Shown: in pieces, positions 1 through 63,236 of the stretch
How positions within the stretch are numbered: the first letter of the stretch is position 1
Layout: every line of letters starts with the position of its first letter
NCBI GenBank assembly: GCA_965201035.1
Contig: OZ241750.1
Coordinates: forward strand, 579,837-643,836
DNA from: an uncultured Pseudohongiella sp.
GTDB taxonomy: Bacteria > Pseudomonadota > Gammaproteobacteria > Pseudomonadales > Pseudohongiellaceae
Reading direction: 5' to 3'
Length of the DNA: 64,000 nt
Position numbers and translations under genes: made by a program
Notes under the pieces: model-generated
The model's input: the letters and a program-made list of their open reading frames with translations, nothing else
What the model was told of the DNA's origin: nothing
Database searches by the model: none

Positions 1-408
1 GCCCCGGCCTGCGGCGTCGATGAATTACGCGCCGAGCCGCTCAAGGCGCTGTCGCGGGCCTATGACATAGTGCTGAACGGCATCGAGCTCGGCGGCGGTT
101 CGATTCGAATCTCGCGTTCGGAAATGCAGCAGGCGGTATTCGATTTGCTGGGCATCGGCCAGGAAGAGGCCGAGCGCAAATTCGGCTTCCTCCTTGCCGC
201 TTTGCGCTACGGCTGCCCGCCCCACGGCGGCATCGCTTTCGGCTTCGACCGGTTGGCGATGCTGCTCTGCGGGGCCGCCTCGATCCGCGATGTAATCGCG
301 TTTCCGAAAACCCAGTCCGCCGCCTGTCCCCTGACCGCAGCACCGGGCGAAGTCTCCAGGGCGCAACTGCGCGAACTGCATATCCGCCCAGGGCAGACAC
401 CAAGTTGA
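1..408 (+). CDS. aspS: aspartate--tRNA ligase, C-terminal fragment (5' end lies outside the window)
   Basis: Frame 1 is open from base 1. The tail [12 protein letters not shown]...[15 protein letters not shown]...[10 protein letters not shown] is the class II AspRS motif-3 region. Confidence 0.9.
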
Positions 409-436
409 GCTCGTTCGGCAGCTGAAGGAAGCGTCT

Positions 437-1180
437 ATGGCGGGACACAGCAAATGGGCGAATATCAAGCACCGCAAGGCGGGACAAGACGCCAAGCGCG
501 GCAAGATTTTCACCAAAGTCATCCGCGAGCTGACCGTGGCGGCGCGGCTCGGTGGCGGCAATCCGGCGGATAATCCGCGTTTGCGGGCCGCGGTCGACAA
601 GGCCCTGGGCGCCAATATGCCGCGGGACACGATTGACCGCGCCATCTCCCGCGGCGCTAATCCGGCCAGCGGCGAAGAGGTCGAGGAAGTGACTTATGAA
701 GGTTACGGTCCCGGCGGGGTCGCGGTTTTTCTGGACTGTCTAACCGACAATCGTAACCGCACCGCGGCCGCCGTGCGCCATGGTTTCGGCAAATTCGGCG
801 GTTCCTTGGGCACCAATGGGTCGGTGGCTTACTTGTTCCGCAGAACCGGCGTGATCGCTTTTGCCGCGGGCAGCGATGAAGAGCGGATCATGGAGCTGGC
901 GCTGGAAGCGGGCGCCGATGATGTCGTCGCCGGCGACGACGGCGCGGTCGAAGTGCATACCGATTTGGAGAATTTCAGTGCCGCGCAGGACGAATTCCGC
1001 GCCGCGGGCATCGATTTCGACAGCGCCGAAATGATAATGCTCCCATCCACCGAAGTCGAGCTCGATCTGGATGGTGCCGCCAAATTGCTGCAACTGCTGG
1101 AGCATTTGGATGATCTCGATGATGTGCAAAACGTCTGGTCGAACGCCAAAGTTCCGCCGTCGGTGGCCGGGCAGTTGTAG
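437..1180 (+). CDS. yebC: YebC/PmpR family DNA-binding transcriptional regulator
   Basis: 247 aa starting [14 protein letters not shown], the hallmark YebC N-terminus. It sits directly upstream of ruvC, as in many proteobacteria. Confidence 0.9.
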
Positions 1181-1225
1181 TAAATCGTAGCTTGTGTTCG
1201 GTAAGCGCCTGCCGATGTTCAATGC

Positions 1226-1744
1226 GTGAGCGTCATAATCGGAATCGATCCGGGTTCGCGGGTAACCGGTTACGGTGTCGTCGCCGCCCGAGACCAGCGA
1301 TTGGAATACATCGACCACGGCTGCATCCGCACCACACAGACGGAGCAGCCCGAGCGGCTGGGCGAAATCTTCGCGGGTCTGTGCCGGGTACTGGAGGAGC
1401 ACGCGCCGACCGAGGCCGCGGTGGAGGAAGTATTCATGGGCCGCAACGCCGCTGCGGCATTGAAGCTTGGGCAGGCGCGGGGGGTCGCGATTGTCGCCTG
1501 CCTGTCCCGCGGTGTGCCGGTGGTGGAGTATTCGGCGCGCAAAGTCAAGCAGGCGGTAGTGGGCACCGGCGCGGCGGACAAGCGACAAGTGCAGCACATG
1601 GTGAAGACGCTGTTGGGAATTGATGGTGCCATCGCCGAGGATGCCGCCGACGGGCTGGCGGCGGCGATTTGCCACGCACACAGCGGCGGCAGTTTGCTGC
1701 GGACGGTGGCGGCGATGTACAGCCGTGGGAGGTTGCGGTCGTGA
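1226..1744 (+). CDS. ruvC: crossover junction endodeoxyribonuclease RuvC
   Basis: 172 aa. The N-terminus MSVIIGIDPGSRVTGYGVV is typical of RuvC, and the gene has ruvA/ruvB context. Confidence 0.92.
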   Translation: MSVIIGIDPGSRVTGYGVVAARDQRLEYIDHGCIRTTQTEQPERLGEIFAGLCRVLEEHAPTEAAVEEVFMGRNAAAALKLGQARGVAIVACLSRGVPVVEYSARKVKQAVVGTGAADKRQVQHMVKTLLGIDGAIAEDAADGLAAAICHAHSGGSLLRTVAAMYSRGRLRS

Positions 1745-2364
1745 TCGGCCTGATTCGCGGCGAATTGGCGGCCAAGACCCCCGCCGAAGTGCTGGTTCTT
1801 GCCGCTGGCATCGGCTATGAAATCCAAATTCCCGCGCGCGTCTTCGATGGCCTGCCCGCAACCGGCGCCGAAGTGGCGCTGCATACCCATTTCGCTGTGC
1901 GCGAAGACGCGCAGGTGCTGTTCGGTTTTCTCGACAGCGGCGACAAAACCGCGTTTCGGCACTTGATCCGCGTCAGTGGCGTGGGGCCGCGGTTGGCCTT
2001 GGCGCTGCTTTCCGGCATGAACGCGGGCGAGCTTGCGGTGGCGGTGCGGGATGGCGATTCTGCCCGTCTCAGCGCGGTGCCGGGCGTTGGCAAGAAAACT
2101 GCGCAGCGCCTGCTGGTGGAGTTGCGCGGTCGGCTAAACGAAATGGATGCCGCCGCACCGCCAACCAGCGGACCGGCAGCGACCCCGGTCTCCCGAGGCG
2201 CCCGCGAAGCGCGGGAGGCGCTGATCAGCCTCGGTTACAAACCGCAGCAAGCGGTGCGCCTGATCGCCGCGGCGCAGCGCGAAAATCCGACGCTTGAGGA
2301 TGCCGGAGAATTGATCCGTTTGGCCCTGCAAAGCGTGACGCCGGGCGCTGGAGGCGGTGCGTGA
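1741..2364 (+). CDS. ruvA: Holliday junction branch migration complex subunit RuvA
   Basis: The ORF-track start at 1669 lies inside ruvC. GTG at 1741 gives VIGLIRGEL..., a typical RuvA N-terminus, and overlaps the ruvC stop (GTGA). A helix-hairpin-helix region ([20 protein letters not shown]) is present. Confidence 0.88.
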
Positions 2365-9889: not shown

Positions 9890-9922
9890 GTGGCTCCAAT
9901 TTGCTATCATTGCGCGCTGCGC

Positions 9923-9998
9923 GGGTCGTTAGCTCAGTTGGTAGAGCAGAAGGCTTTTAACCTTTTGGTCATAGGTTCGAATCCTATACGACCCACCA
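9923..9998 (+). tRNA. tRNA-Lys (anticodon UUU), 76 nt with encoded CCA
   Basis: Hand-folded cloverleaf. Acceptor GGGTCGT/ACGACCC, D stem GCTC/GAGC, anticodon stem GAAGG/CCTTT with loop CTTTTAA, T stem ATAGG/CCTAT with loop TTCGAAT. Confidence 0.9.
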
Positions 9999-10331
9999 TC
10001 TTCCACCACTGCGCCGAAGTCTCGTGTCGTCCGCCGATGATCGCGCAGGGTGCCGGCCCGCCCATGCGCGACCTGGCAGAAATCACCTGCGATGGCGGTA
10101 TATCAAATAGCTTGCAATATTGTTGTGCTTGTGTTCCACTAGACCTTGGGGCCCGTGCTACAGGCTTGATTAAGTACGAGTCTATGCTGGCGTTTTGCGC
10201 GTAGCTACCGCGACTGGGCGCAGTACCTTGAGTTGTTTGCTTATGGTGTCTGCTGTCTGTGAAACAAAATCGCGGGGCATGAAAGCATATTTCCTCAGTC
10301 AAAAAAAATATGCGAATTCTGAGGTAAATGA

Positions 10332-11504
10332 ATGAAGATACCTACCGATTACGAAGACGGCTATGCGAAAGCACGGGTTTTGGATCCGGGTCTCGCCAAG
10401 TCCTATATTGAAAGTGTGCTTGTAGGCGACCCTTTAGCCGACAAAGCGATGCAGCAGTTGCAGGAATTCGACCAAGAGAAAGCCAGCAGACTAATCAATT
10501 CCTGCATGGAACAAGACGATAGAGGCATGAAGGATGCGCCAAGTGGATTAATAGAGCTTTTTCAAGCGCTCGACAATCCGCCTTTTAGATTTTGTCCAGA
10601 TCGAGCACTGCCGGGATGTCGGGCGTTTCACAAGTATTCCGATATGTTTTTTGTTGGACTTGTGCTGAATTCACTTGTAACCGGCTTGACCGAGGGTTTA
10701 AGTAAGTCATTTCATATTACGGGAAGAACTGCTGGCAATTTGCGACGAGTTAAACAGAACACCCGGCATGTCGTGGAAATTACCTTGCCCGGCGGCCTCG
10801 ACAGAGAAGGCGAAGGATGGAAGCTATCAGTGCGTATTCGGTTGATTCATGCGAAGCTTCGAATCTTGCTTATGTCCTCAAATGATTGGGATGTTGTGGC
10901 TGAGGGAGTTCCCATTCATATGGGCCATCTCGCCCTCGCAACTACCGGTTTTTCAGCGATCAATTTACAGGCCGCACGAATGCTAGGAGTGCCTTTAGCT
11001 AAGGAAGAAAGCGAGGGCTTCATGCATATCTGGCATTACGTGGCGTGGTTGATGGGCCTGCCAGAGGATCTATTAAAGTACTTCCAAAGCGAAAGCGACG
11101 CGATGCACATTCGGAAAATTGCGTATGCATGCGAAATACCCCCCGGAGAGAGAGCTACCGAAGTGGCTCATGGCTATCTCAATACTGTCCCACAGATATT
11201 AGGCATTACCGATGAGGCTAAACAGAAAAAATTAATGCTCGCTCTCTTCCGGGTGGCTCGGGCATTGATGGGCCATGACCTGGCAGACACTCTTAAGCTA
11301 CCCAAGCAGTCCACATTTGGTGCCTTGGGCCTCGTTCGGCTGCAGCGGCAATTAAAGATTTTGGTGTCAAAATTCATGCCCAAGCATAAATCTTTCGCCG
11401 TGGAGAACTTTGCCGGCTTGCTGCAAAGATGTGTGTACGATGATATGGGGATTAGCTATCGCATGCCTGATGCCTTAAAAGATTCTCATTCATCGCCTTG
11501 GTAA
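10332..11504 (+). CDS. putative DUF2236/MpaB-Lcp family haem oxygenase, paralogue 1 (family assignment is from motif memory, not a search)
   Basis: 390 aa with no signal peptide and GAGG 8 nt upstream of the ATG. Motifs: GDPLAD, RRVKQN, then 34 residues to IHAKLR, then EESEGFMHIWHYVAWLMGLP. Collinear with the next two ORFs. Confidence 0.55.
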   Translation: MKIPTDYEDGYAKARVLDPGLAKSYIESVLVGDPLADKAMQQLQEFDQEKASRLINSCMEQDDRGMKDAPSGLIELFQALDNPPFRFCPDRALPGCRAFHKYSDMFFVGLVLNSLVTGLTEGLSKSFHITGRTAGNLRRVKQNTRHVVEITLPGGLDREGEGWKLSVRIRLIHAKLRILLMSSNDWDVVAEGVPIHMGHLALATTGFSAINLQAARMLGVPLAKEESEGFMHIWHYVAWLMGLPEDLLKYFQSESDAMHIRKIAYACEIPPGERATEVAHGYLNTVPQILGITDEAKQKKLMLALFRVARALMGHDLADTLKLPKQSTFGALGLVRLQRQLKILVSKFMPKHKSFAVENFAGLLQRCVYDDMGISYRMPDALKDSHSSPW

Positions 11505-11557
11505 GGCTTGGCCCATCGATTTCAGTTGATAAAAATGAGAAAATGACAGGAGCGAGA

Positions 11558-12724
11558 ATGAACATACCCACAAGCTACCAGCCAGGATATGAGCAAGCCC
11601 GCCTTATCGATGAGGAATTAGCAAAGACCTATATCGAGCACCTAGTCATAGGCGATCCATTGGCTGACGCTGCCGTGAAGTCCCTGGCCGGAGTCGACCA
11701 GCAAGAAAAACATCGGCTGATTAAAGCCTGCATGGAAGAGGACGAATCAGGTATGCGGGAGGCACCTGATGCGCTAAGAGAGCTATTTGATCAACTTTCC
11801 CGCTCTTCCATCGAATTTGATCGTGAAAAAGCCCTTCTAGGGTCTCGGATGTTCCATAAATTTCCGGGACTTTTCCAACTCGCGACCGCTTTGCATGGCG
11901 TTCTCATCAGCACTGAGGGGAGTGCCCAGTCCTTTTATATAACCGGAAGAATTACCTCCAACACTCGAAGACTAAGGCAAAATGGCCGCCATGTACTGGA
12001 AGTGACTTTACCAGGTAGTCTCGCGAGATGCGGAGAAGGTTGGAAGTTAACGGTTCGAATTAGAATCATCCACGCGGAAGTTCGGCGTTTGCTTATTGAA
12101 TCCGATGATTGGGATTTTAAAGCTGAAGGAACCCCTGTTAACTCAGCGCATATATCCTTGGGTGCAGTCGGACTTTCAGAGACGGTTATGTTTATCGCCC
12201 GCGAGCTTGGGGCGTCAATTTCTGAAGAAGAGAGCGATGGGTACATGGAGATTTGGAAATATGTGGGCTGGCTTATGGGTGTGCCCGACGTCTTCATGCC
12301 TTATCTGGAGAAGGAAGATTCTGCAAGGCATTTCAGAGAAGTCGCTCACACCTGTGATCGTCTCCCGGGCGAGAAGTCATCAGAATTAGTAAATGGAATC
12401 ATCAAAGCCGTGCCGGATGTGGCGGGGATTGACGACCCTTCAGAAAAAGAAAAAGTCACTTCCCTGATAAGTCGGGTTTCTCGGGTATTGTTAGGAGATC
12501 GAGCGCGAGGGATGAATTTCCCCAAACAGTCGACCTTTGGCGTTTTGCCGGCCCTTCGAATGCAACTGAAATTGAAGATGCTATCTTCCAAACTGCTTCC
12601 ATCGGGAAAGTCATTTGTGGCGGATGGCTTCGCCGAAGCATTGAAACAGTCCGTTTACGATGCTGCGGGTATCAGCTATCGTCTGCCAGATGCCGTGAAG
12701 GATGTCGATTCAAAGCCATGGTGA
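11558..12724 (+). CDS. putative DUF2236/MpaB-Lcp family haem oxygenase, paralogue 2
   Basis: ATG at 11558 is preceded by AGGAG. The ORF-track start at 11498 overlaps gene 1. 388 aa, with roughly half its positions identical to paralogue 1 by eye. It has the same RRLRQN...IHAEVR and EESDGYMEIWKYVGWLMGVP motifs. Confidence 0.55.
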   Translation: MNIPTSYQPGYEQARLIDEELAKTYIEHLVIGDPLADAAVKSLAGVDQQEKHRLIKACMEEDESGMREAPDALRELFDQLSRSSIEFDREKALLGSRMFHKFPGLFQLATALHGVLISTEGSAQSFYITGRITSNTRRLRQNGRHVLEVTLPGSLARCGEGWKLTVRIRIIHAEVRRLLIESDDWDFKAEGTPVNSAHISLGAVGLSETVMFIARELGASISEEESDGYMEIWKYVGWLMGVPDVFMPYLEKEDSARHFREVAHTCDRLPGEKSSELVNGIIKAVPDVAGIDDPSEKEKVTSLISRVSRVLLGDRARGMNFPKQSTFGVLPALRMQLKLKMLSSKLLPSGKSFVADGFAEALKQSVYDAAGISYRLPDAVKDVDSKPW

Positions 12725-12804
12725 TCAATATTCATCCACATTTGAGGTTTGGATATACTAAAAGTGTCGGTGACTCCGTGGTAGAGCGCTTTATCTAGTA
12801 TGTC

Positions 12805-13995
12805 ATGACATTCAGCATCCCAACCGCATATGTTCCCGGCTACGAGGCAGCGCGCCGCGTGGCCCCGGAGCTGGCTGAAACTTACATCCGCCACACCACC
12901 GTCGGAGATGTGATGGCGGATGCTGTCGTTGAACAATTGGCCGAATCAACCGAGCATCCAGGCCAAGACCATGAAATCATCAAGAAGGCGCTCGACAACT
13001 CTCACGACTTGCCCAAAGATACTCCCCAAGTGATGCGGGATTTCGTCGAATCGGCAAAAGTGCTGCCGGATTGGTACGAAAGGGAGTTGGCGATGGTTGC
13101 GAGCAGAGCATTTCTGCGAAACACGGACAAAGTTTTGACTGCTTTGGTGGCTGGGGCTATCGTCGAAGGCTTTTCCAGCATGATCAGCAAGTCCTTCTTC
13201 CTGCGCAGCCGGGTTACGTCGAATGGGGTTCGACGGCTTAAACAAAATCTGCTGCAGCTGGTTGACCAGTATCTGCCTGGAGGCATAGAGCCAGGCGGGG
13301 ACGGCTGGAAACTTACCCTCCGGGCCCGGCTGGTGCATGCGCAGTCAAGGCGGCTATTTGTGCAAAGCCCTGAATTATGGGACCAGTCGGTGTATGGAAT
13401 GCCCCTTAGCGCCGCGCATTTGCAGCTCAGCTCATCTTCTTTTTCGGGGAGGTTGATGCAGCATTGCGCCAAAGTTGGTGGCAACTTCACCGAGCTCGAA
13501 AAGGAGGCCTACGTCCATGTTTGGCGTTATACCGCCATGCTGTTCGGAGCTCCCGAAGCAATCGTGTTCCGTAACTATGCGGAGTCCAAACGGCTGTTCG
13601 AGATTGGAATGCTATGCGAGCCCGCCCCGGGAGACGAAGCGATCATCATGGCGAACAGTATTGTCAACAGCGCGCCGGTCGTGGTGGGAATCACCGACCC
13701 ACAAGAGCGGCAAAAAATCGCGAAGTATGTGTACCAAGTGTCCCGCGAGTTGATCGGCAATGACCGTGCGGACAAACTCAATTATCCACCGGGGAGGAAG
13801 TTGAGAAAAGAACTTATTGTTCTACGGATATTGAGCAGGGCCGAAGTAGTATTGAACAAACTTGTCCCTTGGTTTGATGCGCTTAGATCGCAGAACCGGT
13901 TCAACAACATGCTTGAGGTCACGTATCTCAATCGTGGCGAAATTTCCTACAAACTCCCGACTTCGGTATTGGACGAGTATTCGCGCGATTGGTAA
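12805..13995 (+). CDS. putative DUF2236/MpaB-Lcp family haem oxygenase, paralogue 3 (most diverged)
   Basis: 396 aa. It keeps the landmarks IPTAY.PGYEAAR, RRLKQN...GDGWKLTLRARLVHAQSR, EKEAYVHVWRYTAMLFGAP and a C-terminal ISYKLP...W. Confidence 0.5.
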   Translation: MTFSIPTAYVPGYEAARRVAPELAETYIRHTTVGDVMADAVVEQLAESTEHPGQDHEIIKKALDNSHDLPKDTPQVMRDFVESAKVLPDWYERELAMVASRAFLRNTDKVLTALVAGAIVEGFSSMISKSFFLRSRVTSNGVRRLKQNLLQLVDQYLPGGIEPGGDGWKLTLRARLVHAQSRRLFVQSPELWDQSVYGMPLSAAHLQLSSSSFSGRLMQHCAKVGGNFTELEKEAYVHVWRYTAMLFGAPEAIVFRNYAESKRLFEIGMLCEPAPGDEAIIMANSIVNSAPVVVGITDPQERQKIAKYVYQVSRELIGNDRADKLNYPPGRKLRKELIVLRILSRAEVVLNKLVPWFDALRSQNRFNNMLEVTYLNRGEISYKLPTSVLDEYSRDW

Positions 13996-14032
13996 ACGTG
14001 GTGGCCTATCGATTGATTAGCAGTCCAGCCTT

Positions 14033-16366
14033 TTAGAAATCGCCGAGGGCGCTGATTTGGCGCCGGCTGAGGCTGATATAGTCGGCCAGAATGCGGGCGC
14101 TTTCCGCCAAAAACAGATCTGGCTCTTCCTCATCCGCTGTTATTTGGGTGTCGCTTCCGGTGGATTCGGTGTCGGAATCCGCATCATCAGTAGTGGTCGC
14201 CGAGGCTGCTATTTCTGTCTCGGTCGAAGTGGACCGCTCGGTTGCCGCGGAATCCTCCACCGCTTCGACTTCGGCATCGACGGGGGATTCGACTTGGCTT
14301 GACGCGCCGGCTTCGTCCTCATCGTCCGCGATGATGTCGAGCAGAGGCAGACCTTTGAGGAAGCGGCGCATGTTTTCTGATTCGAGATTGCGGCGGCGAT
14401 CATTCTCCAACTGGGCGTTGAGGGTCGCTTCGTTGAGTGGCCAGAACTTCCGTTCCTGTTGCTCCCGGGCGAAAGCGATTTGCTCGTTGAGATGGATAAA
14501 GTCGGGCGAAACCGCGGCGCGTTGGCGGTGGCGGTCGGCGAGTTCGGGCAGAAATTCCGCAATGGGATGATAGGGTCGGTATTCCACCGGACGCACGGTA
14601 TCCCAGGGGAGGGCGCCGTCGAGGCTGCTTTCGCCGATATGAGCATAAGCGTCGTACGTATCGGGGAATGCGATATCGGGCATGATGCCGCGGTGCTGGG
14701 TGCTGGCGCCGGAAATACGGTAGAACTTAGAGCGCGTCAGCTTCGCTTGACCGAAATTCATCGGAATGATTTCCTGCACGGTACCTTTGCCAAAAGTCTG
14801 GCCGCCGAGCACCAGCCCGCGCCGGTAATCTTGGATGGCGCCGGCGAAAATTTCCGACGCCGAGGCGCTGTTGCGGTTGACCAAAACCGCCATTGGGCCT
14901 TCCCAAGTCACGCCGCTGTCGTTGTCGCCGAATGAGCGGGTATAGCCGTTGCCGAGACCGGAATAACGCACCTGCACCGTGGCACCGGTCTCGATGAACA
15001 GCCCCACCAATTGATTGGCTTCGCCGAGGCTGCCGCCGCCGTTGTTGCGCAGATCGACGACCACGGCATCAACATTGTCTTGCTTGAGTTCTTCAAGCAG
15101 ATTGCGGACATCCCAGGTGGAACTCTTGAAGTCCCGCTCGCCCCGGTTGGCCGCTTCGAAATCGAAATAGAAGGTCGGCAAATGAATGATGCCGACCTTG
15201 AGATCGCGGTCATTATCGCGGGGCAGCTCGATAATCTCCGAGCGAGCGGATTGATCTTCCAAGCGCACCGTATCGCGGGTGATGCTGACCACGGTGGCGC
15301 CGGTTTCGCTCAGCGCGTTGGCCGGGATCACGTTGAGGCGGACCACGGTGCCTTTTTCACCGCGGATCTGGGCCACCACATCGTCGATTCTCATGCCGAC
15401 CACATCTTGGATCTCGCCGTCTGGCCCTTGACCGATGCCGATGATGCGGTCGCCGGCGGAAAGTTGATTGCTGAGTTCGGCGGGCCCGCCCTTGACCAGC
15501 TCGACAATGGTCGTGTACTCGTCTTCCCGGGTTAGCCGAGCCCCGATTCCCTCAAGCGAAAGCGAGAGCCCCATATTGAAGGTCTCCGAATCCTGCGGCG
15601 AGAAATAGGCGGTGTGGGGATCGGAAACACCGGCGACGGTGGTGAGGAAAGCCTGGAAAGCATCCTTTGAATTGGTCTGCAACATACGGTTGAGGCGACC
15701 GCGGTAGCGGTCGGACAGCTTTTCGCGGATTTCCTCGTCGCTGTCGCCAGGCAATTTCAGATTCAAAACGCTGTTCTTGACGCGGAGCCGCCAAATTTCA
15801 TCGAGTTCGGCGGTGTTGGCCGCATAGGGGCTGTCTTCGCGGTTGATTTCGATAAACTCATCCACAGTGAAGTCCATTTCCGGGATGTGCTTCTCCACCC
15901 GGTTGATGGCGTAAATCAACCGTTCCAACAAGCGTTTGTAGTACAAATTGTAGATTTCGTAGCCCGGTGCGAGGCTGCCTTCTCGCAAATGGTCGTCGAT
16001 GTTGTAACGCCAAGCGCTGAGCTGTTTGATATCGTCGCTTAGAAAATACAAATGCTCGCCGTCGAGGGCATCGATGAAATTATCGAATACGAGGGAGGAA
16101 AAATCATCATCGACCGCGATGGGCAAATAATGCTTGGATTGCAGAACATCGATCAGTTCAATCGCAGTCGTCCCATAAATCGGCTCGGGCGTTAGCGGCG
16201 CGTAGAGTTCATCAATATCCAGCACCGAAGTTTCCGCATCGTTCAGACCCGGATCGGTCGTGTCTCGCGCGGCGGCCTCGTTTTGGCCAAAGCAAAGACT
16301 GGCGAAGAGGGCGGACAATGAAAATGCCCCCAAACGACCGAAGTGGCGGAATCCGTGGTGGCCCAT
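14033..16366 (-). CDS. prc: tail-specific (carboxy-terminal processing) protease Prc, S41 family
   Basis: 777 aa with a signal peptide, a PDZ region, and the S41 catalytic blocks NRNSASASEIFAGA and GQTFGKGTVQ. There is an unusual 71-aa acidic S/T-rich tract near the C-terminus. Confidence 0.9.
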   Translation of the reverse strand: MGHHGFRHFGRLGAFSLSALFASLCFGQNEAAARDTTDPGLNDAETSVLDIDELYAPLTPEPIYGTTAIELIDVLQSKHYLPIAVDDDFSSLVFDNFIDALDGEHLYFLSDDIKQLSAWRYNIDDHLREGSLAPGYEIYNLYYKRLLERLIYAINRVEKHIPEMDFTVDEFIEINREDSPYAANTAELDEIWRLRVKNSVLNLKLPGDSDEEIREKLSDRYRGRLNRMLQTNSKDAFQAFLTTVAGVSDPHTAYFSPQDSETFNMGLSLSLEGIGARLTREDEYTTIVELVKGGPAELSNQLSAGDRIIGIGQGPDGEIQDVVGMRIDDVVAQIRGEKGTVVRLNVIPANALSETGATVVSITRDTVRLEDQSARSEIIELPRDNDRDLKVGIIHLPTFYFDFEAANRGERDFKSSTWDVRNLLEELKQDNVDAVVVDLRNNGGGSLGEANQLVGLFIETGATVQVRYSGLGNGYTRSFGDNDSGVTWEGPMAVLVNRNSASASEIFAGAIQDYRRGLVLGGQTFGKGTVQEIIPMNFGQAKLTRSKFYRISGASTQHRGIMPDIAFPDTYDAYAHIGESSLDGALPWDTVRPVEYRPYHPIAEFLPELADRHRQRAAVSPDFIHLNEQIAFAREQQERKFWPLNEATLNAQLENDRRRNLESENMRRFLKGLPLLDIIADDEDEAGASSQVESPVDAEVEAVEDSAATERSTSTETEIAASATTTDDADSDTESTGSDTQITADEEEPDLFLAESARILADYISLSRRQISALGDF

Positions 16367-16474: not shown

Positions 16475-17734
16475 TCAAGGCGCTATTCGCTTGTTTCTCC
16501 CTGAAGCGTGTCTTTCGGTGCGCTCAACATCAATATAGCGGTCCGTTATCGCGCTTGAGCCATGACCGGCATCGTCCCGCACGTGTTCCCGCGGACGGGA
16601 TTTCACATCTTCGGAGATTCCAGTGTGCCGCAGCCAATGCACAGTCGCGCCGGTTAGTCGATCGGCTTCGTCCGTGAAGCCCTCCGCGCGCATGCGTTCG
16701 GCGGCGCGGTCGAAACACTGTTGCACGATGCGGCGAATTTGCCGGGTGCTGGAGACGCCGCCGCCGCCGCGGTTCCTATGAATCAACGGGTTTGGCTCGC
16801 CGGGAGCGGGCAGGGGAGTCAGACCACGGAAGCGGCGATAACGTTTCAGCGCCGCCAGCATGGCGTCGCTTACCGAAATCTCCCGTTCCTTATTGCCTTT
16901 GCCGACGGTGAGAAACCACCAGTTGCCTTCTTGATCGAGCTGGAAATGTCCCATCTGTGGTTGCCAGCGGGACGTTTCCACCAGTTCCGAGATGCGCAGA
17001 TACATGGCGTACAGCGCATTCAAAACAAACAAAGTGCGCTCGTGGCCCGCCGGATCTTCCGCCGCCATTTGCGTTGCCGCTTCAATGACGAATTCCCATT
17101 GCAGGGGAGAAAGCCTGCGTATTTTCGCCTGGCTTTGGCGACCGCGCAGAAATTTGCTCTTCTGCCGCATTCTTGACACCGGATTGAACGCAAGGTGATT
17201 TTCCTGGATGAGGAAATTGAAAAAACTGCCGAGTACGCTGAACAGGGATTGCAGGGCCGCTTGGGAAAGTACGTGTTCTTTGCCCGCGCCGACATAGGGC
17301 CGCCAGGCCGGGTTTGGCGAGCGCAAGCCGTTTTTGAGCAAATACCGGGGGACATTGCGTGCGCCGACCCACGGCCTTGGCGGATTGCGGGCGAATTCGA
17401 CATAGGCTTCGCAGTCCTCCGGCGCAATCCGCCCGAGCGATTTCTTCCGCACCAACCAGCACCAGTGCAGGAAGTGTTCGATTTCCCGGCGGTAGGTGCT
17501 GAAGGTATCCGGACTGCCGCGGTAGCTATAGAGAAATTCGCTGGCGAGTTGATAATCTGCCACCGCATCGGCCGGCGAGTCATTGCGCAGATGGGAAACA
17601 TCTCGCACCGGCGACTTGTAGGGATTGGCCATTTCTTCGAGGGTGTCGAAGAATGGCAGCGGACTTTTTTTGAGCGAACTGTTGGCCTTCGTCGGCATCG
17701 GCGGCTGTGGGCTCCAAGGCGCGGTTACACCCAA
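16475..17734 (-). CDS. tyrosine-type site-specific recombinase/integrase (orphan; start uncertain)
   Basis: The C-terminal catalytic domain carries Arg in YLRISEL, H-x-x-R in HWLRHTG, and GHGSSAITDRYID (His/Tyr). The N-terminal core-binding-like region reads TFSTYRREIEHFLHWCW. Confidence 0.85.
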   Translation of the reverse strand: MGVTAPWSPQPPMPTKANSSLKKSPLPFFDTLEEMANPYKSPVRDVSHLRNDSPADAVADYQLASEFLYSYRGSPDTFSTYRREIEHFLHWCWLVRKKSLGRIAPEDCEAYVEFARNPPRPWVGARNVPRYLLKNGLRSPNPAWRPYVGAGKEHVLSQAALQSLFSVLGSFFNFLIQENHLAFNPVSRMRQKSKFLRGRQSQAKIRRLSPLQWEFVIEAATQMAAEDPAGHERTLFVLNALYAMYLRISELVETSRWQPQMGHFQLDQEGNWWFLTVGKGNKEREISVSDAMLAALKRYRRFRGLTPLPAPGEPNPLIHRNRGGGGVSSTRQIRRIVQQCFDRAAERMRAEGFTDEADRLTGATVHWLRHTGISEDVKSRPREHVRDDAGHGSSAITDRYIDVERTERHASGRNKRIAP

Positions 17735-27325: not shown

Positions 27326-28276
27326 TCATCCTTCTTCGGCCATTTGCCGCAGCCCGTTCAAAAGCGCTGTGAAGCGTGAATCCGGCGGTGCCTCGAAGCG
27401 CATGACCGCGGCATCCGGCGCAGGGCGAAAAGCGATGCGCCAAGCATGCAGCGCCAAATGCCCGTGATGGATTTCGGCGCTTTGCCCGGCGTCCTGCCGA
27501 TAGCGGTCGTCGCCGATGATGGCATGTCCGGCGGATTGACAGTGGACGCGAATCTGATGGGTGCGACCGGTTTCCAGAGTCGCCTCAAGTAAAGTGGCCG
27601 CCCAGAATCGCTCACGAATGCGGAAATGGGTAACCGCGCGCTTGCCGGTGGCCCGCGCCCCAACGACTCTTGCGCCGGCGCCGGACCGCATTTTGCGCAG
27701 CGGCAATTCGATGCGACGCAATGTCTCCGGCCAAGCGCCATGCACCAGCGCGAGGTATTTTTTCTCCACCGCGGCACCGCGGAAGGCGGCTTGGATATGG
27801 CGCAGAAACGCTGGCTGTTTGGCGATGATAAGACAGCCTGATGTATCTCGGTCCAGACGGTGGGCCAGTTCCGCATGCAGCCAATCAGGATGGGATTGGC
27901 GCAGCGCTTCGATCAACCCCAGCGCGATGCCGCTGCCGCCATGCGCCGGCAGACCCGCCGGTTTGTTCAGAATCAGCAGATCTTGATTTTCAAAAATGAC
28001 GAGACCCCGCAAGCGCCGCTTAAGCTTCTCGGTTGGCGGTGCGGGGGGTGGCGGGCCGCCGACCGCGCCGGGCGGAATCCGAATCCGGTCTCCTGCCGCG
28101 AGCCGACTATCGGGTTTGCAGCGACCACGGTTTATCCGCACTTCGCCGCGGCGGATCAAACGGTAAATCCGCGTCCGAGGCAAATTTTTCAGCTCGCGCA
28201 AGAGAAAATTGTCCAGTCTTTGGCCCTGCCGAAGCGCCGGCACCACCAGAAACCGCACTTTGCTCGAATCATTCAT
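27326..28276 (-). CDS. rluC: 23S rRNA pseudouridine synthase RluC (RluA family with S4 domain); start is 28276 or 28309
   Basis: S4 domain QRLDNFLLRELKNLPRTRIYRLIRRGEVRINRGR and catalytic HRLDRDTSG. It is collinear with my recollection of E. coli RluC. Confidence 0.8.
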   Translation of the reverse strand: MNDSSKVRFLVVPALRQGQRLDNFLLRELKNLPRTRIYRLIRRGEVRINRGRCKPDSRLAAGDRIRIPPGAVGGPPPPAPPTEKLKRRLRGLVIFENQDLLILNKPAGLPAHGGSGIALGLIEALRQSHPDWLHAELAHRLDRDTSGCLIIAKQPAFLRHIQAAFRGAAVEKKYLALVHGAWPETLRRIELPLRKMRSGAGARVVGARATGKRAVTHFRIRERFWAATLLEATLETGRTHQIRVHCQSAGHAIIGDDRYRQDAGQSAEIHHGHLALHAWRIAFRPAPDAAVMRFEAPPDSRFTALLNGLRQMAEEG

Positions 28277-34841: not shown

Positions 34842-35372
34842 TCAATGACTGAGCGGCAAATGATCCTCCAGCAATTCCAAATCGCGGTCCACCGTGCCTT
34901 TCAAATAATTGTAGGCGAAAATTCCCGAAATCGCGCCCACCATGCCCGCCATGGTGGGTATTGTTGCCCGGGAAACGCCGCCGGCCATGGATTTGGCATC
35001 GCCGCCTCCGGTCACGGCCATGACGAAGAACACTTCGATCATGCCGGTGACCGTGCCAATCAGCCCCAGCAGCGGGCAAATGGTCACCAAAACTTCAATG
35101 ATGGGCAGTGTGCTGCGCACATCCAGCGAAATTTTGGAGACCATCATGGTGCGGATCTGCCGCGCCGACCAAGAGGATTTGTCCCTGCGGGCATTCCACT
35201 CGGCGAGAGTGTTTCTCACATTGCTCTTGTGGCTGGTGTGTATATACCAGATTCGCTCGAACACCAGCGACCACTTCAAGAACAGCAGTACGGCGATCAC
35301 ATTCAAAACCGGCCCGCCCCGCTGCATGAAGCCGCTGATCAAATCGACGATATCCAACATGAACAGGTACAT
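34842..35372 (-). CDS. exbB: MotA/TolQ/ExbB proton channel protein ExbB
   Basis: 176 aa with three TM segments and the conserved LLGLIGTVTGMI block. Confidence 0.85.
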   Translation of the reverse strand: MYLFMLDIVDLISGFMQRGGPVLNVIAVLLFLKWSLVFERIWYIHTSHKSNVRNTLAEWNARRDKSSWSARQIRTMMVSKISLDVRSTLPIIEVLVTICPLLGLIGTVTGMIEVFFVMAVTGGGDAKSMAGGVSRATIPTMAGMVGAISGIFAYNYLKGTVDRDLELLEDHLPLSH

Positions 35373-35403
35373 GATCGTTCAACTCCCGCGGTTGCCGCCC
35401 GCT

Positions 35404-36813
35404 CTAACCGCCGGCCGCCGCTTCGCGCTCGGCTTTCTGTGCGATCATGCCTGTAGCCTGCTGCTCGAGAATATGGGTGATATTGTCGGCGCGGCTTTTC
35501 ACCACGGTATGCATGAAAATGGTGGGAATCGCAACGACGATACCCAGCACCGTGGTCATCAGCGCTTGGGAAATACCGCCGGCCATGATGGTTGGATCGC
35601 CGGCGCCGTAGACGGTGATCTGCTGGAATACTTGAATCATGCCGGTAACCGTACCAAGCAGACCGCCCAGCGGAGCGATCGTGGCGATCATTTTGATCAG
35701 GGTCAGCATGCTTTCCAAAGAAGGCGTCTCCTGCAGAATCGCTTCGCCCAGCTTGAGCTCAAGCGTTTCCGTATCCGCGTCCGGGTTCGATTCACCCACC
35801 AACAGCACCCTTCCCAGTGGATTTTTGCTGTTCAAGCGATCGCTGTTGCGCAGCTGCGCGCGCACCTTGAAGGAAACGAGCGTCAGTATCAGCAGCCGCA
35901 GGAAAGCGATCAAAATGCCGACGATGCCGACGCCGATAATGATGAAACCGATGATGCCGGAATTATTGCGCACCTGTTCCCGAACCGTTGGGAAATTCAC
36001 CAAATTGGCCAGAACTTGACCGCCAACGCCGCCGGTGGGATCAATCCCCACCTGGACGAATCCACTGGCGGCGGACTCCAGCTCCCGCGCCGAACTCAAA
36101 TACCCGGAATCGGGCTGCCGGGGCAATACCTGCAAGTGGCCGATATCGCCGGAATAGCTCAGATACTGGCCATCGGACACGGCATTGAAGGCACCGATTC
36201 TAGTCACGGACTGGCTCACCGTATCGCCATTGGGCATCGCCACTTGGCCGTTGTAGCTCACGACGCGCCCGGATTCAGTCAGCTCCTGATGCATCAATGT
36301 CCAAAATTGTTCCATTTCGGCGATTTCAAGCTGGGCGATGGTGCTGCCCGCTTTCTCGATGAATCCTTCCACGACTTCGGAGCGGCCGGGATACTGCGCG
36401 CTGACCAGGGAATTCTCGAAAGTGCCGAGAAAATCTCCGGCAACGCCCTGCAGAGTGCCGAACAACTCGTTCAGATCGCCCCGGCGATCGCGGAGGATTT
36501 CGCGCTTGTCGTTGATGGTGATTTCGTTTTGCTCGAATTGATCGCTCAACTGCGATTGCAGGTTTTCCTGCTCGACGATGCGATCATTAGTGGTTTGCAG
36601 TATTTCCTCCTGGCGGTCGGCGTTCTGCTCGAACTCGTCCAACCGCTGCCGGTATTCCTCGGACTCGGCCACCCGGTCCTGCTCCACCAGCTCCAGTAGT
36701 TCGACAATATTGACCGGAGTTTCCTGAGCCGAGAGCTGGGCGCAAACACCAAGCAAAGCACCGGCTGCAATCAGAGTTTTCACTGTTGGGGATTTCAATG
36801 CAATCGCTGTCAT
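35404..36813 (-). CDS. MotA/TolQ/ExbB family protein with a large N-terminal periplasmic/coiled-coil domain (TtpC-like)
   Basis: ATG at 36813 gives a signal peptide (MTAIALKSPTVKTLIAAGALLGVCAQLSA). There is a long coiled-coil region, then the C-terminal ExbB-type channel block LGGLLGTVTGMI. Confidence 0.75.
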   Translation of the reverse strand: MTAIALKSPTVKTLIAAGALLGVCAQLSAQETPVNIVELLELVEQDRVAESEEYRQRLDEFEQNADRQEEILQTTNDRIVEQENLQSQLSDQFEQNEITINDKREILRDRRGDLNELFGTLQGVAGDFLGTFENSLVSAQYPGRSEVVEGFIEKAGSTIAQLEIAEMEQFWTLMHQELTESGRVVSYNGQVAMPNGDTVSQSVTRIGAFNAVSDGQYLSYSGDIGHLQVLPRQPDSGYLSSARELESAASGFVQVGIDPTGGVGGQVLANLVNFPTVREQVRNNSGIIGFIIIGVGIVGILIAFLRLLILTLVSFKVRAQLRNSDRLNSKNPLGRVLLVGESNPDADTETLELKLGEAILQETPSLESMLTLIKMIATIAPLGGLLGTVTGMIQVFQQITVYGAGDPTIMAGGISQALMTTVLGIVVAIPTIFMHTVVKSRADNITHILEQQATGMIAQKAEREAAAGG

Positions 36814-49112: not shown

Positions 49113-49362
49113 CTTGCCTCAGCCAGCCTGCTTCCGAGCCTGCGGCAGTATATACACAGCAACCCCCCATGACAATCTCGCGCGACTGTCGAACCCGCTG
49201 CTCAAACGCTAATTTGACAATGGCGCGGGACTGTTCCTAGTATTGCCGTCCCCGCCGGCGAACAGCCCGTGGAGCGCTAGCCGGCAGCACAGAACCGGCG
49301 GCGCAAGCGCCGAAACGGGAAACGCATTCGCCTACATCGGCACCCAAAGCGCGGAGATTTCC

Positions 49363-50679
49363 ATGACTGCAAGAACGGCGCGATTGATCGTCGACGGCCA
49401 GCCGGACCCCATTGAGCTGCCGATCCATCAAAGCAGTGTCGGCCCGGATGTGATCGATGTGCGCGGCATCATCGACAGCGGTTACTTCACTTACGACCCC
49501 GGGTTTATCTCCACCGCCTCCTGTGATTCGGATATCACCTATATCAGCGGCGGCGAAGGGGTGTTGCTGTACCGGGGCTACCCGATCGAACAGTTGGCCG
49601 AACATTCCAGTTTCCTAGAAAGCTGTTTTCTGCTTTTGCACGGCGAGCTGCCCAGTGGCGCGGAGAAGCTCGAGTTCGAGAAAACGATTCGCTACCACAC
49701 CATGGTGGATCAGCAAATTCATCAGTTTTTCAACGGTTTTCCGCGCTCTTCGCATCCGATGTCGATGCTGGTCAGCGTGGTGGGAGCCTTGTCGGCTTTT
49801 TATCACGACACGATGGATATTGCCGACCCCGGACACCGAATGTTGGTGGCGCGCCGGGTGATCGCGAAGATGCCTACGCTGGCCGCCATGTGCTACAAGC
49901 ACGGCGTTGGCCAGCCCTTCATGTACCCGCGCAATTCGCTGGGCTTTTCCGAGAATTTCCTGCATATGATGTTCGGCACGCCCTGCGAGGAGAAGGAAAT
50001 CAGTCCGGTGCTCGCCCGTGCCATGGATTTGATTTTCCTGCTGCATGCCGACCACGAGCAGAACGCCTCCACTTCCACCGTGCGTTTGGCGGGTTCGACC
50101 GGGGCGAATCCGTTCTCCTGTATCGCCGCCGGCATCGCCGCGCTCTGGGGGCCCGCCCACGGCGGCGCCAATGAATCCGTGCTCGAAATGCTGTCTGAAA
50201 TCGGTTCGGAATCCCACATCGACGATTTTATCCGCCGCGCGAAAGATCCCGATGATCCCTACCGACTCATGGGTTTCGGTCACCGCGTATACAAGAATTT
50301 CGATCCCCGCGCCACGGTCATGCGCGAAGTTTGCGATCAAGTACTTGGCGAAGTGGGCGAAGCGGCGGACAACTCCTTGTTCCGCATCGCCCGCAGACTC
50401 GAACAGATCGCCTTGGAAGACGATTACTTTGTGGAGCGCAAGCTGTATCCGAATGTCGATTTTTACTCGGGCATTATTCTCAAAGCGCTGGGCATCCCGA
50501 CGAGCATGTTCACAGTGATCTTCGCCACCGGGCGCACTCCCGGCTGGATGGCGCACTGGAACGAAATGGTGGGAGGTGATTACCGCATTGGACGCCCGCG
50601 GCAACTGTACCGGGGGCCGCGGCGGCGGGACTATCCGCTGGATCGACGCGCTGAACGCGGGGCCACAAAAGTTTCCTGA
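49363..50679 (+). CDS. gltA: citrate synthase (type II)
   Basis: ATG at 49363 follows GGAG. About 438 aa with the catalytic regions GPAHGGANE and [14 protein letters not shown]. Confidence 0.93.
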
Positions 50680-50719
50680 ATCGCTCGAAAGCCGGTCGGA
50701 CTTCTCTGGATGCGCGAAT

Positions 50720-50795
50720 TGGTGGAGCCTACCGGGATCGAACCGGTGACCTCAACGCTGCCAGCGTTGCGCTCTCCCAGCTGAGCTAAGGCCCC
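50720..50795 (-). tRNA. tRNA-Ala (anticodon GGC), 76 nt with encoded CCA
   Basis: The reverse complement is GGGGCCTTAGCTCAGCTGGGAGAGCGCAACGCTGGCAGCGTTGAGGTCACCGGTTCGATCCCGGTAGGCTCCACCA. It has the G3:U70 Ala identity pair and the anticodon loop CTGGCAG. Confidence 0.9.
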
Positions 50796-50839
50796 AATAG
50801 ATGGCGAGGGCGGAATTTTAGGAACCGGGCCGCTCGCTG

Positions 50840-61708: not shown

Positions 61709-62550
61709 TAACGCCCGGCGCGGTGCATGAAAGCGAGTTTCTCCAGCAACTGCACATCCTGCTCGTTTTTCAGCAAGGCGCCGTACAAAGGTGGTATGGC
61801 GCTGGTTGAATCGCCATCCTTGAGGATATCCACCGGAATATCGTCGGCCATCAGCAATTTCAGCCAGTCCAGCAATTCCGAAGTAGACGGCTTTTTCTTC
61901 AATCCCGGCACTTTGCGCAGGTCGAAAAATACTTCCATCGCCCGGTGAACGAGATTTTTCTTGATGTCGGGGTAATGCACCCGGACGATTTTTTCCATGG
62001 TGACGGCGTCGGGGAAATCGATGTAATGGAAAAAGCAGCGTCGCAGAAAAGCGTCGGGCAGCTCCTTCTCATTGTTGCTGGTGATTACCACGATCGGGCG
62101 CGACCGCGCCTTGATCAATTGCCGCGTTTCGTAGACATGAAACTCCATCTTGTCGAGTTCGAGCAGTAGATCGTTGGGAAATTCGATATCGGCTTTGTCA
62201 ATCTCGTCGATCAGCAGCACGTTGCGCCGCTCGGACTCGAACGCCCGCCAAATCTTGCCGCGGATAATGTAATTGCCGATATCGCCAACCTTGTCGTCGC
62301 CGAGCTGCGAATCCCGCAGGCGCGACACCGCGTCGTACTCATACAGGCCCTGCTGCGCCCGAGTGGTGGATTTGATATGCCATTGAATCAGCGGCAGATC
62401 CAGTGCTTTGGCGATTTGCTCCGCCAGCATGGTTTTGCCGGTTCCCGGCTCGCCCTTGATCAACAGCGGCTTGCGCAGACGGATGGCCGCGTTCACCGCC
62501 AACCGCAATTCCGCGGTGGCAACGTATTCGTCGGTGCCGGCAAAATTCAT
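61708..62550 (-). CDS. MoxR-like AAA+ ATPase (CoxD/CbbQ-like)
   Basis: 280 aa with Walker A GEPGTGKT, Walker B LLIDEIDKA and sensor/arginine regions (ITSNNEKELPDAFLRRC). Confidence 0.85.
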   Translation of the reverse strand: MNFAGTDEYVATAELRLAVNAAIRLRKPLLIKGEPGTGKTMLAEQIAKALDLPLIQWHIKSTTRAQQGLYEYDAVSRLRDSQLGDDKVGDIGNYIIRGKIWRAFESERRNVLLIDEIDKADIEFPNDLLLELDKMEFHVYETRQLIKARSRPIVVITSNNEKELPDAFLRRCFFHYIDFPDAVTMEKIVRVHYPDIKKNLVHRAMEVFFDLRKVPGLKKKPSTSELLDWLKLLMADDIPVDILKDGDSTSAIPPLYGALLKNEQDVQLLEKLAFMHRAGR

Positions 62551-63200: not shown

Positions 63201-63236
63201 AACCGCGGAGCGGGATGGTTGTTGGATCGGCGGCGA

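Follow-up and report, generated by a model that had tools for sequence, protein, structure and literature searches.

What the three adjacent, co-directional genes at positions 10332-13995 of a 64,000-nucleotide (nt) stretch of an uncultured Pseudohongiella sp. genome (contig OZ241750.1; the whole stretch is hereafter called the window) encode, how they came to stand together and which reaction their products may catalyse are the questions raised by this locus. An original prediction, made from the letters of the window, described them as a tandem array of diverged paralogues of a putative DUF2236/MpaB-Lcp-type haem oxygenase. The best reading of the present analysis, to which a probability of roughly 0.6 is given, is that the products (copies 1 to 3) are soluble cytoplasmic (or membrane-peripheral) haem-b dioxygenases that cleave lipophilic, probably isoprenoid, alkenes. 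Haem oxygenases cleaving C=C bonds are proposed because the haem-site residues are conserved, the fold matches that of a known enzyme, and the neighbours of the genes in relatives are lipophile-handling or isoprenoid-related.

The array and its products

The three genes, all belonging to a superclade of the MpaB/Lcp haem oxygenase family with Gln and Asn in the distal pocket, and the motifs that mark their haem sites are located as follows.

10332-11504, plus strand: copy 1, 390 amino acids (aa), clade A of the Gln/Asn superclade
11558-12724, plus strand: copy 2, 388 aa, long-branch clade-A member (A')
12805-13995, plus strand: copy 3, 396 aa, clade C
10743-10760, plus strand: distal-pocket motif RRVKQN of copy 1 (residues 138-143)
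10833-10862, plus strand: proximal motif RIRLIHAKLR of copy 1 (residues 168-177)
11966-11983 and 12056-12085, plus strand: motifs RRLRQN and RIRIIHAEVR of copy 2
13231-13248 and 13321-13350, plus strand: motifs RRLKQN and RARLVHAQSR of copy 3

The lengths, orientation and spacing of the open reading frames (ORFs) agree with the original prediction, with gaps of 53 nt between copies 1 and 2 and 80 nt between copies 2 and 3; an operon structure is inferred solely from the shortness of these gaps. For copy 2, an upstream TTG (11498) was given as the start in the mechanical ORF list, and the ATG at 11558 is preferred because it is preceded by an AGGAG ribosome-binding site and agrees with the alignment to copies 1 and 3. 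All three genes are full-length, with no internal stops or frameshifts.

The proteins are collinear end to end, as had been claimed. Copies 1 and 2 are 47-48% identical, in keeping with the earlier estimate of about half, and copy 3 is 31-32% identical to copy 1 (BLASTP E 1e-71, far beyond chance). This far more diverged copy does retain every landmark attributed to it: the N-terminal IPTxYxxGY, GDxxAD, RRxxQN, G(E/D)GWKL and RxRxxHAxxR motifs and the common C-terminus are present in all three proteins. Their N-termini read MKIPTDYEDGY, MNIPTSYQPGY and MTFSIPTAYVPGY, respectively, and the homologous domain starts at residue 3-5. Kyte-Doolittle analysis, applied in place of a dedicated signal-peptide predictor, found no N-terminal signal-like or membrane-spanning segment (maximum 19-residue mean 1.3-1.7), which bears out the expected lack of a signal peptide.

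Family membership and fold

All three proteins match Pfam PF09995 ('ER-bound oxygenase mpaB/B'/Rubber oxygenase, catalytic domain', ER being the endoplasmic reticulum; formerly DUF2236) with 56.1, 49.7 and 47.8 bits for copies 1, 2 and 3, respectively (gathering cut-off 23; E-values 7.3e-15, 6.5e-13 and 2.5e-12), and the proposed membership in the MpaB/Lcp family is solid. No NCBIfam model matched any of the three, so that no finer curated family is available; NCBI names their homologues 'oxygenase MpaB family protein' or 'DUF2236 domain-containing protein'. The remote search suggested in the original prediction pointed to the same family: among 177,635 Protein Data Bank (PDB) sequences, a profile of the three copies matched the rubber oxygenase LcpK30 (5o1l/5o1m) alone (E 6.5e-17), as did a profile built from 89 relatives (E 4.3e-18). 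The t-anethole oxygenase gave no sequence-level match in these profile searches.

For copies 1 and 3, AlphaFold2 (AF2) modelling on deep alignments gave all-alpha structures, with a predicted local distance difference test score (pLDDT) of 93.0 and a predicted template modelling score (pTM) of 0.92 for copy 1, and 91.1 and 0.91 for copy 3. When the models were compared with the PDB by Foldseek, again as had been suggested, Lcp 5o1l/5o1m came first for both, with a template modelling score (TM) of 0.59-0.67 for copy 1 (E 4e-7) and 0.65-0.75 for copy 3 (E 2e-8), each at probability 1.0. The second match of both models was the t-anethole oxygenase 8s1j (TM 0.45-0.57, probability 1.0), and every other PDB structure stayed at a probability of at most 0.14. 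The proteins are single-domain, of about 390 aa, with no fused output or signalling domain, and all 29 invariant positions of an 89-sequence family alignment are kept in the three copies. The fold and haem binding can be regarded as very probable. Of the outcomes that the original prediction listed as refuting it, none was observed.

Haem-site residues

In Lcp, His198 is the proximal haem ligand and is 100% conserved; Arg164 is essential and 98.8% conserved; and the pairs Asp56-Arg195 and Asp60-Arg202 form stabilising salt bridges (PMC5522427; PMC6311187). Thr168 is nearly essential, being 99.6% conserved among 495 Lcp homologues, and the T168A variant retains 2% activity; Lys167, 59% conserved in Lcps, is the distal axial ligand of the closed state; and in the hydrophobic substrate channel Glu148, the proposed base, is the sole residue with a charge (PMC5522427; PMC6311187). 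These residues were mapped onto the three copies by two independent hidden Markov model (HMM) alignments and one MAFFT alignment, which are in agreement and give the following correspondences.

Lcp His198 (proximal haem ligand): H173, H172 and H178 in copies 1, 2 and 3
Lcp Arg164: R139, R138 and R144 in copies 1, 2 and 3
Lcp Arg195: R170 in copy 1, with equivalents in copies 2 and 3
Lcp Arg202: R177 in copy 1, with equivalents in copies 2 and 3
Lcp Asp56: D33 in copy 1, with equivalents in copies 2 and 3
Lcp Asp60: D37 in copy 1, with equivalents in copies 2 and 3
Lcp Lys167: replaced by Q142 in copy 1, Gln in all three copies
Lcp Thr168: replaced by N143 in copy 1, Asn in all three copies
Lcp Glu148: replaced by L123, S122 and I127 in copies 1, 2 and 3

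The match of an Arg/His pair to Arg164/His198, which had been put forward in the original prediction, is recovered by all three alignments, and the Asn noted there at a conserved Thr position does align with Thr168 in every copy. The spacing of exactly 34 residues between the second Arg of RRxxQN and the His of the HA dipeptide, reported for copy 1, is found in all three. By alignment to the Lcp crystal structure, the His and the Arg are predicted to lie at the haem pocket, and the two Asp-Arg salt bridges appear to be retained as D33/R170 and D37/R177 (copy 1 numbering).

These positions are conserved well beyond the array. The R170, H173 and R177 positions are invariant in the 89-sequence alignment, and in 176 superclade sequences from four clades the equivalents of Asp56, Asp60, Arg164, Arg195, His198 and Arg202 are 97-100% conserved (100% for Arg164 and His198), the exception being the Asp60 equivalent in clade B (83%, 12 sequences). 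Across the same 176 sequences, Gln at the Lys167 site and Asn at the Thr168 site are each at least 97% conserved, and the Glu148 site is hydrophobic in the consensus of every clade; some clades carry an acidic residue 2-6 positions upstream of it. Gln and Asn cannot ligate iron as Lys does, from which a five-coordinate resting haem is inferred. In globins with Gln at position E7, bound O2 is stabilised by hydrogen bonds, and by analogy the haem is probably five-coordinate at rest here, with bound O2 held by hydrogen bonds from Gln/Asn.

The C-terminal tail, which lies outside the region alignable with Lcp and has lower AF2 confidence, is also conserved. Its last residue (codons 11499-11501, 12719-12721 and 13990-13992 in the three copies) is Trp in 173 of the 176 superclade sequences and Tyr in the remaining 3, and an xSY(R/K)(L/M)P motif occurs about 14 residues upstream in clades A, B, C and the '45' group described below, which suggests a channel plug or docking element.

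Deep paralogues and sponge-associated relatives

A neighbour-joining tree of the superclade shows four groups: clade A, which holds copy 1 and the long-branch copy 2; clade B, made up of second copies found in relatives; clade C, with copy 3; and a block about 45% identical to copy 1. Copy 1 is sister to L015_A/P0002, and its closest relatives are 69% and 68% identical. The best matches of copy 2 are orthologues of copy 1, at no more than 52% identity; it has no closer orthologue in the databases and forms its own 50%-identity cluster in a library of 1.84 billion proteins, i.e., it is a fast-evolving singleton. For copy 3, at least 1188 relatives were found at E<=1e-30, the best being 60% identical. 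A recent local triplication is ruled out by the tree and the best-hit identities, since copies 1 and 3 fall in different deep clades and are closer to their orthologues elsewhere (69% and 60%) than to each other (31%). In terms of clades the array is A-A'-C, apparently assembled from ancient paralogues. With a clade-A profile, the number of clusters retrieved falls from 3,696 at E<=1e-3 to 2,481 at E<=1e-10 and 416 at E<=1e-30; the superclade is a well-delimited branch of moderate size.

The closest species-representative metagenome-assembled genomes (MAGs) are those of Candidatus Poriferisocius, another member of Acidimicrobiales, a Chloroflexota, an Alphaproteobacterium and Candidatus Porisulfidus. 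Porisulfidus is described as a sponge symbiont (PMC12988363), and its copy co-occurs with the window's proteins in sequencing run SRR33960551. Among the 80 best metagenome loci (L025-L104), 43 come from three Mediterranean sponge metagenomes, namely LXNJ (Petrosia ficiformis, 18), MKWU (Aplysina aerophoba, 18) and LXNI (Sarcotragus foetidus, 7), and none comes from LXNH, the seawater assembly of the same study. All seven clade-A loci among the 80 are from Petrosia. Taken as raw counts, these figures show a strong bias of the superclade to sponge microbiomes.

Gene neighbourhoods in relatives

At other loci too, clade-A genes recurrently stand in sets of two or three deep paralogues. A second family gene is present in 12 of the 15 clade-A contexts with usable flanks (L002, L003, L008, L010, L015, L016, L024, L025, L026, L028, L030 and the window), the single-copy contexts being L004, L012 and L027. 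A multi-enzyme or multi-substrate module, which the original prediction had read from the array, is not proven by this recurrence, which nevertheless makes the idea more than a guess. Another three-gene tandem array of the family, of the order B-A-B', is carried by L024 (5455-10562; ENA ERZ24894576 ctg49500l). Its genes encode 400, 389 and 393 aa, are separated by 77 and 210 nt and follow immediately after a squalene-synthase-like SQS_PSY gene; a FadL/Toluene_X outer-membrane gene is close by.

SQS_PSY genes abut the arrays of both L024 and the alphaproteobacterial L010 (57% identical to each other), and the gene is present in two further loci; the best NCBIfam match of the L010 copy is squalene synthase. 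The clade-A and clade-B genes flank an orthologous 760-820-aa HAE3/MMPL permease of the resistance-nodulation-division (RND) type with a sterol-sensing-type domain. This module occurs in Acidimicrobiia, Gamma- and Alphaproteobacteria and a TARA scaffold, with 43-59% identity between lineages, at the following loci.

L008: 10001-14866
L010: 5504-11182
L015: 7674-16256
L016: 7743-14700
L002: 8790-13661
Further loci: L025, L026, L042, L054, L072, L077 and L085

NCBIfam places the permease in the HAE3 family near HpnN and BstA, with scores below the cut-offs of both. It is often accompanied by genes for a LolA-like protein (PF17131, E 6e-64) and a weakly DUF1302-like protein (E 2e-3), and sometimes by one for a cytochrome P450. 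An orthologue of the permease was found in 13 of the 52 metagenome loci of at least 10 kb, in 9 of the 13 within 350 nt of the oxygenase gene. Clade C genes adjoin two P450 genes, a tripartite RND pump, a NUDIX gene and a short-chain dehydrogenase/reductase gene in L018, L019/L020 and L021 (Candidatus Palauibacter).

Two other contexts were observed. In L016, a Rieske ring-hydroxylase and an alpha/beta-hydrolase gene are near the array. In L022/L023 (8001-10397), a gene of the 45% clade (389 aa, present on many sponge-MAG contigs) adjoins a sulfotransferase-like gene between branched-chain ATP-binding cassette permease genes, near restriction-modification/defence genes, a context unlike those of clades A to C.

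Proposed function and alternatives

All characterised members of the family (Lcp, MpaB, Nro1 and the t-anethole class) are haem-b oxygenases that convert C=C bonds to carbonyls without an external reductant, and by analogy copies 1 to 3 are likely C=C-cleaving oxygenases. In the mechanism proposed, the haem iron would be held by the invariant proximal His (H173, H172 or H178), with haem and fold braced by the two Asp-Arg pairs, and O2 would bind on the distal face of a five-coordinate resting haem, beside the invariant Arg (R139, R138 or R144) and hydrogen-bonded by the invariant Gln-Asn pair that stands in place of the distal Lys/Thr of Lcp. A lipophilic substrate would be threaded through a hydrophobic channel, and its C=C bond would be converted to two carbonyl products with no external reductase. 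The A, A' and C copies most likely either have different substrates or cleavage positions or act as partners, and the most likely class of substrates would be isoprenoids (squalene-like, polyprenyl or terpenoid lipids) from the sponge holobiont. The isoprenoid assignment, taken by itself, falls somewhat short of an even chance.

Several observations weigh against this proposal. Thr168 and the proposed base Glu148 of Lcp are not conserved in the copies, so that their chemistry could differ from that of Lcp, and the oxygenase activity of the superclade is predicted by homology. The nearest characterised bacterial enzyme outside Lcp, the t-anethole oxygenase, acts on aryl alkenes rather than isoprenoids. 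The transporter link is seen in only about a quarter of superclade loci. In addition, tblastn with the MMPL, LolA-like, DUF1302-like, P450 and squalene-synthase-like queries gave no match in the 64-kb window, and the context argument applies to this locus by orthology only.

The same chemistry might act on other substrates, such as aryl alkenes of the phenylpropanoid type, on the model of the t-anethole oxygenase, unsaturated or polyacetylenic sponge fatty lipids, or synthetic-polymer-like alkenes. The rank of 8s1j as second-best structural match, the cleavage of a butadiene polymer by Nro1 (PMC12724181), the broad substrate range reported for PgMpaB (PMC6900556), the many relatives from Petrosia, Sarcotragus and Aplysina metagenomes and the Rieske ring-hydroxylase and alpha/beta-hydrolase of L016 are all in line with such substrates. 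However, the fold is closer to Lcp (TM 0.59-0.75) than to the t-anethole oxygenase (0.45-0.57), to which no sequence match was obtained, and the recurrent HAE3 transporter and squalene-synthase-like neighbours point to isoprenoid-type lipids. Non-isoprenoid substrates are considered unlikely.

The copies could also work as partners or hetero-oligomers, for which the odds are rather low. A more specific form, of similarly low probability, is a lipid-processing system enriched in sponge holobionts in which a clade-A dioxygenase is obligatorily paired with a clade B or C paralogue (as a hetero-oligomer or for consecutive cleavages) and served by Ame-like HAE3 transport. Its targets would be squalene-like, sterol or polyprenyl lipids from host or symbiont, with substrates or products moved by the HAE3 transporter. 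The C-terminal Trp would then act as a channel plug or docking element, and the A-A'-C array of the window would represent a portable 'enzyme-only' version, acquired horizontally beside tRNA-Lys.

A non-catalytic role, either as a globin-like gas or redox sensor or as a cytoplasmic lipid chaperone feeding or gating the HAE3 transporter, is improbable. Lcp has a 3/3 globin fold resembling that of globin-coupled sensors (PMC5522427), its presumed catalytic residues beyond Arg/His (Thr168 and Glu148) are replaced in the copies, the transporter is tightly adjacent in relatives, and the C-terminal Trp hints at docking or plugging; yet the equivalent of Lcp R164, which is needed for activity and not for haem binding (PMC5522427), is 100% conserved, no output or signalling domain is fused to these single-domain proteins, and every characterised family member is an oxygenase. 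True rubber oxygenases, to which the best PDB match would point, are very improbable given 15-20% identity to Lcp, Asn for Thr168, Gln for Lys167, a hydrophobic residue or Ser for Glu148, no secretion signal as opposed to the extracellular Lcps, and marine sponge-associated hosts. Decaying, functionless duplicates from a local triplication, a notion that the long branch of copy 2 and its lack of a close orthologue would favour, are scarcely credible when all three genes are intact, all 29 invariant positions are kept, and copies 1 and 3 lie in different deep clades with orthologues closer than each other.

The islet and its setting in the window

The haem-oxygenase array lies between the following landmarks.

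9923-9998, plus strand: tRNA-Lys(UUU), found by ARAGORN and Rfam RF00005 (77 bits), left landmark of the islet
9999-10331, plus strand: non-coding leader of copy 1 (333 nt), with GAGG 8 nt before the ATG, presumed promoter/regulatory region
13996-14032: spacer of 37 nt between copy 3 and the convergent prc, right edge of the low-GC islet

The array had been described as lying on a foreign-looking islet, and the deviant composition is real. GC content is 0.49-0.54 over 4 kb against about 0.58-0.64 in the flanks, the low-GC segment starts directly after tRNA-Lys at 9998, and GC at third codon positions (GC3) is 0.51, 0.49 and 0.635 in copies 1, 2 and 3, as compared with 0.67-0.735 in neighbouring genes and a host-like 0.70 in prc (tail-specific protease). 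On the other hand, the 23-nt 3' end of tRNA-Lys has no second copy in the window at up to 3 mismatches, and a general repeat search found no convincing flanking direct repeat; no integrase is adjacent. Of the features of a tRNA-associated island, tRNA adjacency and deviant composition are thus present, and an att-type repeat and an adjacent integrase are not; by composition and tRNA position, the label 'islet' is justified. The only recombinase-like gene of the window (16475-17734, minus strand, 419 aa) lies beyond prc from the islet, has a host-like GC3 of 0.67 and shows a weak Phage_integrase match (E 6e-7) with sub-threshold XerC/XerD matches; its exact protein sequence was not found in a collection of 15 billion proteins.

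In 15 of 17 other loci from several phyla (L002-L030), the oxygenase gene is likewise lower in GC than the surrounding locus (e.g., 0.533 vs. 0.659 in L010), a pattern suggestive of recurrent horizontal transfer or of a composition bias intrinsic to the family. Either may account for part of the GC dip, although the GC3 deviation of copies 1 and 2 is large despite the family-wide tendency. A tblastn search of a plasmid collection gave only distant partial matches (at most 35% identity) in Nocardia, Streptomyces, Rhodococcus and Acinetobacter, with no mobile-element link. Copy 3 has no obvious Shine-Dalgarno sequence before its ATG (upstream region 12725-12804), whereas copies 1 (GAGG) and 2 (AGGAG) have one; this, together with its higher GC3, would fit either an origin other than that of copies 1 and 2 or a longer residence. 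A promoter and terminator scan of 9900-14100, which includes the leader and the prc spacer, found no site above shuffle expectation. The leader region has no Rfam match, and a 122-aa minus-strand ORF there (9934-10302) has no Pfam match.

Next to the array stand tRNA-Lys, queC and prc, and elsewhere the window carries core housekeeping genes of gammaproteobacterial type: ruvB, tolQRAB-pal-ybgF, queE and queC lie upstream; prc, the XerC-like recombinase gene, holB, tmk, mltG, fabF, acpP, fabG, plsX, argS and htpG downstream; and sucABCD-lpdA, sdhAB, gltA, gltX, hrpA and msrPQ further downstream. A Pfam scan of 30 other window genes returned housekeeping functions only, and Rfam found two tRNAs only over the whole window. 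Four ORFs with host-like GC3 have no Pfam match at E<=1e-5: 25-645 (minus strand, 206 aa), 740-1861 (minus, 373 aa), 27358-27876 (minus, 172 aa) and 34942-36699 (plus, 585 aa). The 373-aa and 585-aa ORFs have none even at E<=0.1. Window segments 49243-52357 and 62547-63983 have gltX, citrate synthase and msrQ/msrP-like Ferric_reduct and Oxidored_molyb genes in common with the Candidatus Porisulfidus locus L008, where the oxygenase-MMPL module is located at a different position from that of the window array; the shared gene content is a hint that the window stems from a related sponge symbiont among the Gammaproteobacteria.

Significance

The family itself is already known, as is apparent from the name 'oxygenase MpaB family protein' given to homologues. 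PF09995/DUF2236 is a large family with known substrates only for the rubber oxygenases, MpaB, the t-anethole oxygenase and Nro1. The earlier remark that it has almost no assigned substrates is right in that the enzymes are few, but it is somewhat dated, the t-anethole oxygenase class and Nro1 having been described since (PMC12724181). The branch described here is marked by distal Gln/Asn in place of Lys/Thr without Glu148, by its sponge bias, and by the tendency of several deep paralogues to occur together, adjacent to lipid transporters, P450s and a squalene-synthase-like gene. To our knowledge, the searched literature describes neither the Gln/Asn distal-pocket superclade and its bias to sponge microbiomes nor its recurrent paralogue sets and its genomic association with P450s, a squalene-synthase-like gene and an Ame-like HAE3 cassette. 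If the proposed chemistry is true, it would give sponge symbionts a route to cleave or detoxify terpenoid or lipid alkenes and would provide reductant-independent biocatalysts, an enzymatic counterpart to ozonolysis. The three copies in an operon-like array are a convenient test set for specificity divergence within the family. The locus is thus a testable lead for enzyme discovery and sponge-symbiont biology, although it would not surprise a specialist.

Comparison with known systems

AmeABCD of Castellaniella defragrans is an HAE3 system for monoterpene efflux, tied to monoterpene metabolism and tolerance; among the remaining HAE3 proteins, only the hopanoid exporters HpnN had been characterised as of 2018 (PMC6394551). 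The likeness is in the cassette that adjoins relatives of copy 1, i.e., an HAE3/MMPL permease, a LolA-like (DUF1329-related) protein and a weakly DUF1302-like protein. However, AmeABCD and HpnN resemble context partners in relatives and are not homologues of copies 1 to 3, the cassette is absent from the 64-kb window, and no AmeC-like gene was identified.

Nro1, the nitrile rubber oxygenase, has a b-type haem spectrum, cleaves nitrile-butadiene rubber and has R68, K71 and R72 as distal residues (PMC12724181). The same paper cites Purwani et al. 2024 for a bacterial haem class cleaving C=C bonds, in which the t-anethole oxygenase of Stenotrophomonas maltophilia (8s1j) acts on aryl alkenes. These enzymes are like the copies in being bacterial, with b-type haem and conversion of alkenes to carbonyls expected in both, and 8s1j is the second-best structural match; they differ in being much shorter (about 300-323 aa), in distal residues and in substrates, and the TM is only 0.45-0.57.

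LcpK30 of Streptomyces sp. K30 is a b-type-haem rubber dioxygenase and shares with the copies the Pfam family, an all-alpha globin-derived fold, a similar length and N- and C-terminal extensions around the globin core. Also shared are the proximal His198, the distal Arg164, the Asp56-Arg195 and Asp60-Arg202 pairs and the 34-residue Arg-to-His spacing. Identity, in contrast, is 15-20%; Gln, Asn and Leu/Ser/Ile occupy the Lys167, Thr168 and Glu148 sites; the family-specific C-terminal tail of the copies ends in a near-invariant Trp; and the copies occur in paralogue sets, whereas Lcp occurs as a single gene. Lcp cleaves polyisoprene and acts extracellularly (PMC5522427), whereas the copies have no secretion signal and are probably intracellular. 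Since the features of the Lcp subfamily (Thr168, Lys167, Glu148 and secretion) are lacking, the copies are regarded as members of the family and not as Lcp orthologues.

Fungal MpaB, a globin-like oxygenase of the mycophenolic acid pathway that cleaves a farnesyl side chain, requires two Arg and one His (PMC6900556). It differs from the copies in being eukaryotic, ER-bound according to the Pfam description and encoded in a meroterpenoid cluster; the copies have no membrane-spanning segment (19-residue mean <=1.7), and no polyketide synthase or prenyltransferase was found in the window. MpaB/MpaB' and the copies nevertheless share the Pfam family name and, by description rather than by direct sequence comparison, the Arg/Arg/His set essential in MpaB. 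As an intracellular enzyme whose substrate is a small, lipophilic isoprenoid chain and not a polymer, MpaB provides the closest functional analogy for a cytoplasmic enzyme of this kind.

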